In this document: in pieces, positions 43,246-49,418 of the stretch
How positions within the stretch are numbered: position 1 is the stretch's first letter
How the letters are laid out: every line of letters starts with the position of its first letter
NCBI GenBank assembly: GCA_023898585.1
Contig: CP060229.1
Span: forward strand, 11,388 to 75,387
Reading direction: 5' to 3'
Source of the DNA: Candidatus Nomurabacteria bacterium
GTDB taxonomy: Bacteria; Patescibacteriota; Minisyncoccia; Phycocordibacterales; UBA918
Length of the DNA stretch: 64,000 nt
Notes under the pieces: generated by a model
Told to the model about the DNA's origin: nothing
The model's database searches: none
Seen by the model: the letters and a program-made list of their open reading frames with translations, nothing else
Made by a program: the position numbers and the translations under genes

Positions 43246-43605
43246 TGTACAACGTAGAGTTCGGTTTACGCGCTTTGCTCATATTCTTGAGCTAGTATTT
43301 TTAATACTTCACCACCGCGCAAACCTGATATATAGATTCTCATGACCAGAAAATAAGTCAATACTACAAAGAAAGCCTTATTTCAATGGGTAGCTGTGTA
43401 TAAACTGTGCAAAACTATGTAGATATCCGGTGTGAAACTATGGCGATAACTACATTGACTAAAGTTAAGCAAAAGTTAGCATTGAACAACTGTTGAGCGA
43501 ATCGTCACCAGACTGCATAGGTGGTTTTTCTGACACTCACGCTTCTCTTTTTACACAGTCCAACGTAAGGAATTATTAGCGTAAAACGCAACCTGCGATG
43601 AACTT

Positions 43606-46730: not shown

Positions 46731-46894
46731 ACTTCAATTTATCTAACCTAACATTCATAATCTCTGAGTAAACAAAGAGAGCCGTGCCGGACACCCTTTC
46801 TTGACCTGTCTCTATCACCATATCAAACTTCACTACAAAGAGGACAGAAACTTCTTTTTAGTTAATCGTCCTCTTACTGAGCACAAAAAATGGA

Positions 46895-47047
46895 AAAAAT
46901 GGTGTCAGAGGAAAAAATGGTGTCAGAAAAAATGGGGAAAAATGGTGTCAGGGAAAAATGGTGTCAGGTACCTTTTTTAGGTCTTCCCCTCCCTCTAGAG
47001 GGAAAAATGGTGTCAGGTACCTTTTTTAGGTCTTCCCCTCCCTCTAG
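46895..47047 (+). repeat. REP-like tandem repeats: five copies of AAAAATGGTGTCAG, last two extended to a 48-bp unit
   Basis: AAAAATGGTGTCAGGTACCTTTTTTAGGTCTTCCCCTCCCTCTAG twice in tandem, preceded by three shorter copies. Confidence 0.75.
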
Positions 47048-47678
47048 TAGTAGCGTCAAGGTCATACTTATCAATCATATCGCCCGACCACTGCTCTCCT
47101 CCGAACGGCTTACCTTTGTTCACCGAATAACGAGCGACTTCTAGTTCTCCAGCAGTTAGGGGTGTGTGGATAAAATCTTCGTAGTCTCTAGGGAGTGCTA
47201 CTGGTAGTTTCGTTAATAGATTAGCTTTGTTGTTCTCTCTTCTATAGAAACTAGAATACTTCCAGTTATTCAGGTTTTTGACTAGCTTGGCCCTAAGTGG
47301 ATTTCGTTCAACATACCTAATGACAGTTAGCAGGTGTTGATCTTGTTCAATGAGGAAAGATTTATATCGCCCTTGGTACAAGTGCCCTGAACCGATGGTT
47401 TTATTCTGTACGTGCCATCTTTGCGTGTGAGTGAGAGTAAGCCACTGCATAAAACGCTGGAGGTCCCCATCCTTTTTGGGATACAAGATAAGATGGAAAT
47501 GATTAGGCATGATGCAGTATGCAATGATGCGCATATCGTACCTCTCAGCAGCATCTTCCAAGATAGACTCGAACAATTGATAGTCCTCCTCTTTGAAGAA
47601 AATCTTTAGTCTGGCATTGGCACGGTTGATTACGTGATACACCTCGTTACCCACATCTACTCTTGGTACCCTGCCCAT
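47013..47678 (-). CDS. HUH Y1 transposase, IS200-like / REP-associated tyrosine transposase (RAYT)-like
   Basis: N-terminal MGRVPRVDVGNEVYHVINRANARLKIFF (YHV..R.N.R..IF pattern) and HUH motif IMPNHFHLIL; flanked by inverted REP-like repeats. Confidence 0.75.
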   Translation of the reverse strand: MGRVPRVDVGNEVYHVINRANARLKIFFKEEDYQLFESILEDAAERYDMRIIAYCIMPNHFHLILYPKKDGDLQRFMQWLTLTHTQRWHVQNKTIGSGHLYQGRYKSFLIEQDQHLLTVIRYVERNPLRAKLVKNLNNWKYSSFYRRENNKANLLTKLPVALPRDYEDFIHTPLTAGELEVARYSVNKGKPFGGEQWSGDMIDKYDLDATTRGRGRPKKGT

Positions 47679-47698
47679 ATGTGTATTGTATCAGAAAA

Positions 47699-47717
47699 GG
47701 TACCTGACACCATTTTT
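47699..47717. repeat. inverted copy of the REP-like unit on the other side of the RAYT gene
   Basis: GGTACCTGACACCATTTTT is the reverse complement of AAAAATGGTGTCAGGTACC. Confidence 0.75.
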
Positions 47718-47967
47718 CACAATACCCCACTGTTTTCAGAGTCTACGAATAAGGACGATTTTTAGCTTTTTTAATTGTACTTTATTTTAAGAGTATTGTC
47801 AAGTAATCGTAATGCTCCGCAGGTAGGATTCGTCCCGCTTTTTCTAATTCACTACGTTCATAAGAACGCTGGACGCAGCTCGCTCGTTTTCTGCTCTAGG
47901 GATGAGCAGAAAACATCACTCCGCTTTTCGAATCCTAACGCAAGACACGAAGGTGTCTTGCTCCTGC

Positions 47968-48040
47968 GGAGCACTAAAATCAAAAGCCGCGCTGGTGCGC
48001 GACTAAGCTTTTATGTGCTCCGCGTGCTGGACGAGTTTGA
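47968..48040 (+). repeat. ~75-bp repeat copy A (GGAGCACTAAAATCAAAAGCC...TGGACGAGTTT)
   Basis: ~80% identical to 52302..52382, same orientation. Confidence 0.6.
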
Positions 48041-48182
48041 CCTAATTTTTAATGACTGAAAGGAGTATAAAAATGGAAATACTCTTGTGGTGCGAACCTT
48101 GGATTGGGTGAGTGTCGAGGAAACGATGCGACGTATTGGGCTTGTGACGTAAAAAACCAAACAATATAGTGAGATACAGAAG

Positions 48183-49418
48183 CTACTCCGCCCGTAGAGC
48201 ATCGACTGGATCGAGTCTAGATGCCTTGTATGCAGGATACAAACCAAACAACACACCGGTCAGGACTGAAAAGATGAAGCCAAGCAAGACCCCCGTCACC
48301 GACGGTATCATGGTGAGGCCGCTTAGGTGTGAAAGGAGTGGCAGTGTCGCTTGAGCCAGAATGATACCAGTCACACCTCCCACTACTGCCAAAACTGATG
48401 ATTCGAGCAGGAACTGCCACATGACGGTCTTGCTCTCAGCCCCCACCGCTTTCATGATGCCGATCTCGCGCGTACGCTCGGTCACGGTCACCAACATCAC
48501 ATTCATGATGCCAATGCCAGACACAACCAAGACAACTGCTGCTACAATGGTGAGCAACATCGCCATCGTGTCAGCAGATTCTTGAGCGGTAGTCACTTTT
48601 GAACCCTGATCCTTTAAGCGGAAATCATCGGGCGTGCTCGCTCGCAATTTATGATTATCTCGTAACAAGAGCGTTATTTCGTCCATGGCCGGGGCGATAG
48701 ACTCAATGTCATTAGCATTCGCTACTAAGCGTACAGTACCAGACGTGCCAAGCACTACTTTCTCAGCGGTTTCGTACGGCATGTAGACACTATCATCAAA
48801 GACCGTTGGCCCGATCGCTGCCCCACTCTGTTCGATCACTCCCACCACCTCGAACTTCTTGCGCGCGATCGAGACCGACTCACCGATCGCATCTTCAGGC
48901 ATATCACCAAAAAGATCCTCGACCGCGCTTGAGCCCAAAATGATCACCCGGTCACGACTTTCAAGCTCTGTTTCAGTCAAATTTCTTCCGGCAATAATTT
49001 CCAGATTGGTAACCGCGAAAAAACCTTGATCGATACCAAGGATGGTCAACTGACTCTCCAGTGCACCAAACGTGATCGGCAATTTGCCTTGGTACATGGC
49101 AGTCGCAGCTTCAACAGTGGTCGCCTGTTCCCGCAGCAAAACAGCGTCATCAAAATTAAGTAAAGCCGGCGAACCTTCCGTTGAAGCTGGATTGATCGAG
49201 ATGGCAGTGACACTCAGATTCTTGAACTGTTCTTCAATATCCGCCTTGGCTCCTACTCCGATCGCGACCACCAAAATGATCGTTGCGACGCCGATCACAA
49301 TGCCGAGAATAGAAAGAATATTACGGCTCTTTTTAGCCCATAATTGTTGTATCGCTATCAGTGCAAGATCGAGACTAAACATGGCTGAGTTCGTAATTAT
49401 TACTGACCACTGCGCCAT
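48183..49418 (-). CDS. ABC transporter permease, MacB/FtsX type
   Basis: N-terminal TM, large extracytoplasmic domain, C-terminal FtsX-like 3-TM bundle ending GLYPAYKASRLDPVDALRAE. Confidence 0.85.
   Translation of the reverse strand: MAQWSVIITNSAMFSLDLALIAIQQLWAKKSRNILSILGIVIGVATIILVVAIGVGAKADIEEQFKNLSVTAISINPASTEGSPALLNFDDAVLLREQATTVEAATAMYQGKLPITFGALESQLTILGIDQGFFAVTNLEIIAGRNLTETELESRDRVIILGSSAVEDLFGDMPEDAIGESVSIARKKFEVVGVIEQSGAAIGPTVFDDSVYMPYETAEKVVLGTSGTVRLVANANDIESIAPAMDEITLLLRDNHKLRASTPDDFRLKDQGSKVTTAQESADTMAMLLTIVAAVVLVVSGIGIMNVMLVTVTERTREIGIMKAVGAESKTVMWQFLLESSVLAVVGGVTGIILAQATLPLLSHLSGLTMIPSVTGVLLGFIFSVLTGVLFGLYPAYKASRLDPVDALRAE

Follow-up and report, generated by a model that had tools for sequence, protein, structure and literature searches.

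A probable TIRtron in a Patescibacteria genome: a single-copy TIRYT gene bracketed by terminal inverted repeats

Introduction

Genes for RAYT-like proteins (RAYT stands for REP-associated tyrosine transposase and REP for repetitive extragenic palindrome) that are flanked by terminal inverted repeats (TIRs) rather than by GTAG REPs have been named TIRYTs, and the units that they form with their repeats are referred to as TIRtrons (Di Nocera, De Gregorio, Rocco 2013, BMC Genomics 14:522, PMC3733652). Here, we describe a locus that is very likely a unit of this kind, consisting of a single-copy TIRYT gene bracketed by its cognate TIRs. It is located in a stretch of 64,000 nucleotides from the genome of a Candidatus Nomurabacteria bacterium of the Patescibacteria (GenBank assembly GCA_023898585.1, contig CP060229.1, positions 11,388 to 75,387 of the forward strand). 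This stretch is hereafter called the window, and all positions are given relative to its first nucleotide.

In the portions of the 2013 paper available to us, TIR families are described as having few to moderately many copies, and in some genomes they form dimers or clusters. Some TIRs are placed at a similar distance to the coding sequence and have the motif GGGGWSAS in common, some contain a short self-complementary tract, and the sequences that flank TIRYT genes can overlap the 3' end of the gene, a situation labelled '3ov' (PMC3733652). The TIRYTs are equivalent to subclass 2.1 of the TnpA-Y1 proteins and to Group 1 in the RAYT classification of Bertels (Quentin, Siguier, Chandler, Fichant 2018, PMC6006769). 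Subclass 2.1 was characterized by the HuH motif NH[YF]H or NHVH, the TIR consensus GGGG[AT][CG]A[CG], an absence of REPs, about 1.9 copies per genome and C-terminal helix-turn-helix (HTH) domains of the Bac_DnaA_C, HTH_23 and HTH_28 types; Y---NP is listed as the tyrosine signature of class 2 (RAYT-like) and Y---Q as that of IS200 transposases (Table 1 in PMC6006769). The 16-mers flanking Group 1 genes were estimated to occur about 12 times per replicon, as compared to 57 and 140 times for the REP-associated groups (Bertels et al. 2017, PMC5581495).

In the literature that we searched, TIRYTs are discussed only in two comparative papers, with no substrate, cleavage site or function reported. 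Among the RAYT-like enzymes, no other branch is as large or as widely distributed. REP families typically have more than 100 members per genome. These are located in extragenic space, and each is a stable imperfect palindrome with a 5' GT[AG]G head at its foot. The REPtron of E. coli, which is said to have been the subject of work by Nunvar in 2010 and by Ton-Hoang and Messing in 2012, reportedly consists of the gene for TnpA-REP (YafM, PDB 4ER8) with flanking REP/BIME sequences. TnpA-REP, like the transposases of IS608 and ISDra2, cleaves single-stranded DNA at specific sites via a 5'-phosphotyrosine intermediate and then rejoins the ends.

Results

A RAYT-like gene between perfect inverted repeats

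The gene is an open reading frame (ORF) on the minus strand and is bracketed by an inverted repeat of 24 nt, GAAAAATGGTGTCAGGTACCTTTT on the gene strand, with 100% complementarity between the two sides (Table 1). The upstream copy pairs with the gene-proximal copy downstream of the gene and also with a duplicate of the latter at 46953-46976. The repeat, in which an A-run, a stem and a T-run follow each other, is thus longer than the 14-mer unit AAAAATGGTGTCAG given in the initial annotation. This 14-mer was recovered in the numbers and orientations claimed there, with exactly five copies on the plus strand (at 46895, 46913, 46938, 46954 and 47003) and a single inverted copy at 47704-47717, and no other exact match in the window. 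Allowing for up to two mismatches, nine matches were obtained, while 0.95 were expected and none of 100 shuffled sequences reached nine. The downstream repeat overlaps the gene, such that its last four codons (K-K-G-T), for which this had also been noted previously, are located inside the repeat together with the stop codon (47013-47015). The core motif of the repeat, GGTGTCAG, matches the published GGGGWSAS motif in 7 of 8 positions, and most relatives have GGGGTCAG or GGGGACAG, which match in all 8.

Table 1. Positions of the features in the window, and loci in other genomes that carry related repeats.
Feature	Position or locus	Strand	Description
TIRYT gene (RAYT-like Y1 HUH single-strand DNA endonuclease/transposase)	47013..47678	-	ORF of 221 aa
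Upstream terminal inverted repeat (LE TIR)	47695..47718	-	Reads GAAAAATGGTGTCAGGTACCTTTT; 16 nt separate it from the ATG
Downstream terminal inverted repeat (RE TIR, gene-proximal copy)	47002..47025	+	Contains the stop codon and the K-K-G-T codons
Array of truncated outer-arm TIR copies	46885..46952	+	AAAAAATGG / AAAAAATGGTGTCAG x3 / AAAAAATGGGG
Extra copy of the 49-bp tandem duplication	46950..46998	+	RE TIR with the gene's final 11 codons
Candidate internal promoter, extended -10 box TGATACAAT	47685..47693	-	Read from the sequence
External sigma-70-like promoter match, TTGACA-17-TACAAT	47774..47802	-	11 of 12 consensus matches; upstream of the LE TIR
Nitrospirales loci (metagenome-assembled genomes) with AAATGGTGTCAGGTACC	L102, L117, L123, L126, L146, L150, L159, L161, L169, L176		
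Bacillaceae loci with clustered core	L090, L092, L094, L100, L120, L128, L148, L155, L156, L189		

The encoded protein of 221 amino acids starts with MGRVPRVDVGNEVYHVINRANARLKIFF and contains the N-terminal motif stretch EVYHVINRANARLKIFF, the HUH motif PNHFHLIL (H60-F61-H62), a putative catalytic tyrosine, Y122, inside a Y-x-x-x-N-P motif (RYVERNP) and a C-terminal tail with the sequence RGRGRPKKGT. The only Pfam domain over its whole length is Y1_Tnp (E 8.9e-19), and the reported Y1 gene with its N-terminal and HFHLIL motifs was confirmed. A comparison with RAYT and IS200 profiles, as called for in the initial annotation, gave 79.3 bits with the NCBIfam family REP_Tyr_transpos (NF047646), marginally below the cut-off of 80, and 22.8 bits with transpos_IS200 (NF033573), for which the cut-off is 55. 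The closest solved structure by sequence is E. coli TnpA-REP (4ER8, E 6.9e-5), with ISDra2 TnpA at 0.11, and Y122 aligns with the region of the catalytic tyrosine in 4ER8.

An AlphaFold2 model built on 49 orthologs (pLDDT 90.2, pTM 0.89) also had 4ER8 as its top match in the PDB (Foldseek E 4.2e-10, TM 0.73 on target), with the ISDra2 and IS608 transposases ranking behind it (E ~1e-7 to 1e-5). All 49 orthologs have H60, H62, Y122 and N126. Based on the NCBIfam scores, the Y-x-x-x-N-P motif and the match to 4ER8 by both sequence and fold, the protein classifies as RAYT-like and not as a canonical IS200 TnpA. Residues 130-211 were modelled as four short helices, whereas the last ten residues were of low confidence and the GRPKK tail was disordered. 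Pfam identified no HTH domain in residues 131-221, only a sub-threshold match of AT_hook to RGRGRPKK (E 1.1, 9.8 vs 17.4 bits), and we would read the GRPKK tail as a putative AT-hook.

BLASTP comparisons with the published TIRYTs (Additional file 5 of PMC3733652) yielded 45% identity over the full length to each of rba2408 from Rhodopirellula baltica (E 1e-73), gbm2474 from Geobacter bemidjiensis (E 6e-71) and dau2153 from Desulforudis audaxviator (E 8e-66). Identities to the other TIRYTs were 27-30%, and those to the RAYTs of E. coli and Pseudomonas were 22-29% (E. coli 22%).

The gene is annotated as 'transposase [Candidatus Kaiserbacteria bacterium]' in the database entry for the exact protein. 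Its GC content (0.438) is the same as that of the window (0.437), indicating that it is not recently acquired foreign DNA. It is present in a single copy in the window and at the identical site in all contigs of the same species. In six such contigs, its neighbours are a MacB-type ABC transporter operon on one side and, on the other, a small gene cluster that includes NUDIX and nucleoside deoxyribosyltransferase-like genes.

Conserved layout and clade-specific repeat sequences in relatives

The family is common in Patescibacteria. A total of 6,235 homologs were found, of which the best 120 are 61-100% identical to the protein over the full length and 197-328 amino acids long (216-227 in most cases); the named homologs among these 120 belong to Parcubacteria/Patescibacteria. 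We retrieved 80 related loci from metagenomes, 70 of which could be scored for flanking repeats. A perfect inverted repeat of 13-24 nt was present at both positions in about 60 loci, down to a protein identity of about 50%, whereas direct-repeat controls between the same two regions were typically 7-9 nt. The layout of a repeat, 16-17 nt with a -10-like box, the ATG, the gene and a stop codon inside the second repeat was observed across many lineages of the Patescibacteria, in which the orthologs are 60-76% identical.

The spacing within this layout is tightly kept. The upstream repeat ends 16-17 nt 5' of the ATG in most orthologs, and, measured from the first base of the core motif, the ATG is 32-33 nt away in 26 of the 38 distinct upstream regions. 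TATGAT or TA(C/T)AAT boxes are conserved 6 nt 5' of the ATG, often with a TG extension. On the other side, the start of the downstream repeat is placed 12-13 nt ahead of the stop codon's end in most orthologs with at least 50% identity. The repeats themselves are clade-specific (AATGGGGTCAGGTACCTTT, ATTGGGGTCAGCCACCATT, AATGGGGTCAGGACCCATTT and TTATTGGGGACAGGGACAATATT) and identical on the two sides of each gene, with GG(G/T)G(T/A)CAG as their invariant core. The C-terminus of the protein tracks the repeat, so that KKGT occurs with GGTACC, KNGS with GGGTCC and KNGG with GGTGGC. Searches with tblastn of the six neighbouring proteins in the window against all retrieved loci revealed no conserved neighbourhood, and the neighbours of the gene differ between species.

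The repeats contain a short self-complementary tract and are not REPs

The GT[AG]G head is absent from the 5' end of the repeats in the window. As single-stranded DNA, the repeat folds with -2.7 kcal/mol on the gene strand and -2.4 kcal/mol on the other strand (z -0.7 and -0.9), and a stable REP-like hairpin was rejected since the fold energy is the same as that of shuffled sequences. Over 61 distinct repeats, a symmetric tract of 6 pairs had 80.9% of its cells paired, as compared to 73.1% in shuffles (0 of 500 shuffles reached this value), and it outscored all controls in which the tract was slid along the repeat. The tract is A/T-rich and 5-6 bp long; one of its pairs clearly covaries (U-A in 28 and A-U in 23 repeats) and another is unpaired in 35 of the 61. 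Hence, the repeat has a short self-complementary tract and not a REP-type stem-loop, and the flanking repeats are not REPs. The interpretation of the locus as a REP-RAYT-REP unit in the initial annotation thus holds for the RAYT-like protein and for the inverted orientation of the flanking sequences but not for the identity of the repeats, which make the unit a TIRtron.

Copies of the repeat away from the gene

In the 62.5 kb of the window outside the locus, no further copies were found, and loose patterns of the repeat family gave none either. The estimate for the source genome rests on the window, which covers 6.4% of it, and the source contig was absent from the GTDB matches; zero extra copies in this fraction argue against more than about 50 randomly placed copies. 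In 244 kb of sequence flanking the orthologs, there were 6 copies at more than 400 nt from the gene. A scan of GTDB genomes with the 17-mer AAATGGTGTCAGGTACC returned 106 stretches. Each Patescibacteria genome among them contained 1-4 exact copies, and for many of these copies the surrounding 8-kb block lacked the gene. In the small genome of the window, the repeat family has stayed essentially local. The initial annotation had named two observations that would speak against its interpretation, a repeat confined to this site and a protein that groups with canonical IS200 TnpA. The repeat is indeed local within the window, whereas the protein groups apart from IS200 and related genomes do contain solo copies.

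Such solo copies were observed in several settings. One locus (L016, 7430-8500) contains a solo downstream-type copy that retains the codons RPKKGT-stop and also a gene-less pair of an upstream-type and a downstream-type copy, which together bracket an unrelated membrane-protein ORF of 251 amino acids. In another metagenome-assembled genome (MAG), two solo copies bracket an unrelated gene of about 330 amino acids (L106 and L177, contig JAZJXK010000005, ~39.5-40.7 kb). Four near-identical elements of about 80 nt that start with AAATGGTGTCAGGTACC were found in one Terriglobia MAG (L113, L183, L190) and two multi-copy short elements with these ends in one Acidobacteriota MAG (L168, L172). Outside the Terriglobia MAG, copies in this set of loci, which also includes L141, occur as inverted pairs 20-40 nt apart, and the short elements of the two MAGs and of L141 resemble miniature inverted-repeat transposable elements (MITEs) or REPINs.

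In about a dozen genomes of the Nitrospirales, homologs that are 51-54% identical to the protein carry AAATGGTGTCAGGTACC upstream, about 42-58 nt 5' of the ATG and directly before a TTGACC -35 box, next to a gene that is conserved as their neighbour. Only one of the Nitrospirales loci in Table 1 has the inverted copy downstream. The repeat core is nearly constant from Patescibacteria to Nitrospirales, Acidobacteria and Bacillaceae. In the Bacillaceae (Neobacillus, Heyndrickxia and others), the core GGTGTCAGGTACC / GGTGTCAGGCACC is arranged in direct and inverted clusters, several per genome, and no homolog of the gene was located near these clusters within the 8-kb blocks retrieved.

Truncated outer arms and a 49-bp duplication

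At many loci, nested copies of the outer arm lie beyond the complete repeat at either end of the gene, restarting at the same outer boundary and ending inside the core. Such partial copies were found at 37 of 77 distinct TIR ends, about half of the ends and in several phyla, with 72 copies on the outer side and 0 on the inner side. Most of them break at GGGGTCA/G; in 40 of the 72, the match continues up to core positions 7-9 (GGGGTCA, GGGGTCAG and one further position), and 25 extend another 11-46 nt into the promoter or the gene. The array of four truncated copies beyond the downstream repeat in the window is of the truncated-arm type and is located entirely on the outer side of that repeat. 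The independent set of 111 copies from the GTDB scan had the same polarity, in that 35 outer-arm copies were placed outward and 6 inward, and 8 solo copies had inner-arm duplications on the inner side.

The window also contains a duplication of the longer, run-on type. The initial annotation had described the last two units of the array as extended to 48 bp; they are indeed a perfect tandem duplication (46950-46998 / 46999-47047), the length of which is 49 bp. In a contig of the same species (L001, GCA_020428745.1) with 0 substitutions relative to the window over 12.9 kb, this duplication is absent, and the only other differences are an indel of 2 nt (TC) at 43435, which could be an assembly error or a frameshift, and a run of Ns. 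Aside from the 2-nt indel, the duplication is the only real structural difference between the two sequences. It is also missing from L003. Inspection by eye revealed no microhomology at the junction, and slippage is therefore disfavoured as its origin. Some duplications upstream of the gene at other loci (L021, L027 and L017) span the ATG and the first codons and are followed by a fresh repeat and promoter, mirroring the 3' duplication in the window.

Two further contigs (L005 and L006) have a C-to-A change in the upstream repeat, at position 47699 of the window (GGTACA for GGTACC), indicating that the two repeats are not kept identical in every strain. The available portions of the 2013 description of TIRtrons (PMC3733652) contain neither 'truncated' nor 'partial', and use 'tandem' only for GTAG REPs. 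Outward-only truncated arrays and strain-level polymorphism of a duplication were not found in the literature that we searched. When the literature was queried with the sequence itself, only unrelated primers were matched.

Sequences upstream of the gene

Two candidate promoters were identified (Table 1). The internal -10 box TGATACAAT adjoins the upstream repeat and is situated 6 nt 5' of the ATG; transcription from it would yield a leaderless or near-leaderless mRNA. The external candidate is a consensus match only, at one site where 2.7 were expected in shuffled sequences, and its use would place the TIR in the 5' untranslated region.

A highly structured element of about 165 nt (47812-47975) separates the upstream repeat from the terminator of the MacB-type operon (48004-47985, minus strand). 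It has a long closing stem and two perfect hairpins, and its RNA fold energies are -84.1 kcal/mol (z -7.7) for the minus strand and -75.5 kcal/mol (z -7.4) for the plus strand. Rfam gave no match to region 47700-48200 at E values up to 1, and weak nhmmer matches were obtained to two other Patescibacteria loci (L055, 6968-7107, E 1.2e-6, and L179). The element may be an undescribed non-coding RNA or a DNA palindrome. At gathering thresholds, the only Rfam matches in the whole window were 10 tRNAs, such that no known RNA family explains the repeats.

Discussion

The locus is most readily explained as a TIRtron, and we consider it very likely that a single-copy TIRYT gene is here bracketed by its cognate TIRs. 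The label is preferred over that of a REP unit because the inverted repeats lack a GTAG head and the protein is 45% identical to published TIRYTs. By analogy with the recognition of REPs by E. coli TnpA-REP, the enzyme may recognise its own repeats, and when bound to the upstream copy it would occlude its own promoter and thereby limit its own synthesis. The chemistry of TnpA-REP and of the IS608 and ISDra2 transposases, from which we infer the steps of binding, nicking and mis-joining, further suggests that a nick would be placed within or beside the central TCAG of the repeat. If such nicks were mis-joined or repaired, truncated outer-arm copies could arise, as could longer duplications from the same outer boundary, including the one of 49 bp; the same process might give rise to the solo copies and the close inverted pairs in other genomes. 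That the nested, outward-only partial arms are the footprints of an enzyme acting on its own ends, with the 49-bp duplication as an event of the same kind, is a tentative proposal that we hold to be possible rather than probable.

Several observations weigh against the TIRtron explanation and its mechanism. The breakpoints of the partial copies are spread over positions 4-9 rather than at one site, which fits polymerase stalling or slippage equally well. The repeat folds no better than shuffled sequences, making hairpin recognition in the style of TnpA-REP uncertain, and it departs from GGGGWSAS at one position (GGTG). None of the HTH domain types described for subclass 2.1 was identified by Pfam in the C-terminal part of the protein. 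With a strong external promoter also present, the internal promoter is a candidate only, and most relatives in the Nitrospirales have the upstream repeat alone, which suits a regulatory site better than a transposon end. Finally, the biochemistry of any TIRYT was not found in the literature searched.

The leading alternative is that the repeats are purely regulatory and surround a domesticated gene, with an operator upstream and a terminator-like or mRNA-end element downstream, and with arrays that arose by slippage in the absence of DNA cutting. The fixed distances that separate the upstream repeat from the -10 box and from the ATG are consistent with this idea, as are the Nitrospirales loci, where the 17-mer just 5' of the -35 box usually lacks a downstream partner, the A-run, stem and T-run layout, and the absence of a single breakpoint in the partial copies. 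Yet the invariance of the catalytic HUH and tyrosine residues is hard to explain for a mere repressor, and the downstream repeat is kept as an exact inverted copy even where this limits the choice of the last codons. In other genomes, the same ends occur in solo copies, in gene-less pairs and in multi-copy elements that resemble MITEs, the strict outward polarity of 72 to 0 is not expected from slippage alone, and the 49-bp junction showed no microhomology on inspection. We consider this alternative unlikely. A regulatory role for the upstream copy and a DNA-cutting role are in any case compatible and do not exclude each other.

A classical REPtron, in which a RAYT is flanked by dispersed, high-copy REPs that it mobilises, is less probable still. 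It would account for the RAYT-like protein between inverted repeats, the self-complementary tract with its covarying pair, and the intergenic solo copies and close inverted pairs in other genomes. However, the repeats have neither the GT[AG]G head nor a stable fold, and their numbers are low at every scale surveyed, from no extra copies in the window and 6 in the ortholog flanks to 1-4 exact copies per Patescibacteria genome in the GTDB scan. The NCBIfam RAYT score is moreover just under its cut-off, and the protein is far closer to TIRYTs (45%) than to the RAYTs of E. coli or Pseudomonas (22-29%). An ordinary autonomous insertion sequence of the IS200/IS605 family is scarcely credible: despite the Pfam family 'Transposase IS200 like', the NCBI annotation as 'transposase' and gene neighbours that differ between species, the protein scores far below the IS200 cut-off, has YxxxNP rather than YxxxQ and a C-terminal extension that brings it to 221 amino acids as compared to about 150 in IS200 TnpA, and the gene has terminal inverted repeats rather than subterminal hairpins, is single-copy in the window at a site common to all contigs of the species, and has orthologs with a conserved layout across Patescibacteria lineages.

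The TIRtron reading, while placing the locus in a kind of element described in 2013, adds a member with a Patescibacteria host, the gene itself being annotated as 'transposase', and relates to an upstream repeat that is locked to the putative promoter of the gene. The locus and its relatives supply oligonucleotide substrates that can be tested, along with a predicted cut site. Should the proposal about the partial arms be true, these would show that a widespread Y1 HUH family cleaves at the central TCAG and rejoins at the outer boundary, and the TIRYT family would still be active in the minimal genomes of Patescibacteria. Leads to the mechanism of an unstudied enzyme family are provided by the polar arrays and by a repeat core that stays nearly constant across phyla.

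Compared with known systems, the locus has the HUH/Y1 fold in common with the TnpA proteins of IS200/IS605 elements such as IS608 and ISDra2, which differ by their YxxxQ motif, their size of about 150 amino acids with no C-terminal region, their subterminal hairpins and their multi-copy nature. With the REPtron of E. coli, it shares the catalytic motifs, a single-copy gene between cognate inverted repeats and, in 4ER8, its best structural match; it differs in that the proteins are only 22% identical, the repeats are not abundant and have no GTAG head or stable stem-loop, and the protein has an extra C-terminal region of about 75 residues with a GRPKK tail. The resemblance to subclass 2.1 is set by the described motifs and comprises NHFH, YVERNP, a length of more than 200 amino acids with a C-terminal extension, low copy number and the lack of canonical REPs, whereas the W motif is WH here and not W[EQ], and Bac_DnaA_C, HTH_23 and HTH_28 are not detected by Pfam. 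Relative to the TIRtrons of Di Nocera 2013, the host is a member of the Patescibacteria (candidate phyla radiation, CPR), the core of the TIR agrees with the published GGGGWSAS in 7 of 8 positions, and the truncated arrays are outward-only with polymorphism among strains; neither CPR hosts nor these arrays and polymorphisms are mentioned in the available portions of that paper. In other respects, the correspondence is close: the window protein and the rba2408/gbm2474/dau2153 group have the blocks FMQWLTLTHTQR, GHLYQGRYKSF, LLTVxRYVExNP, PFGxExW and GRPKK in common, the TIR families have few to moderately many copies and form some dimers or clusters, and the gene is placed between terminal inverted repeats at a fixed distance, with the downstream TIR overlapping its 3' end.

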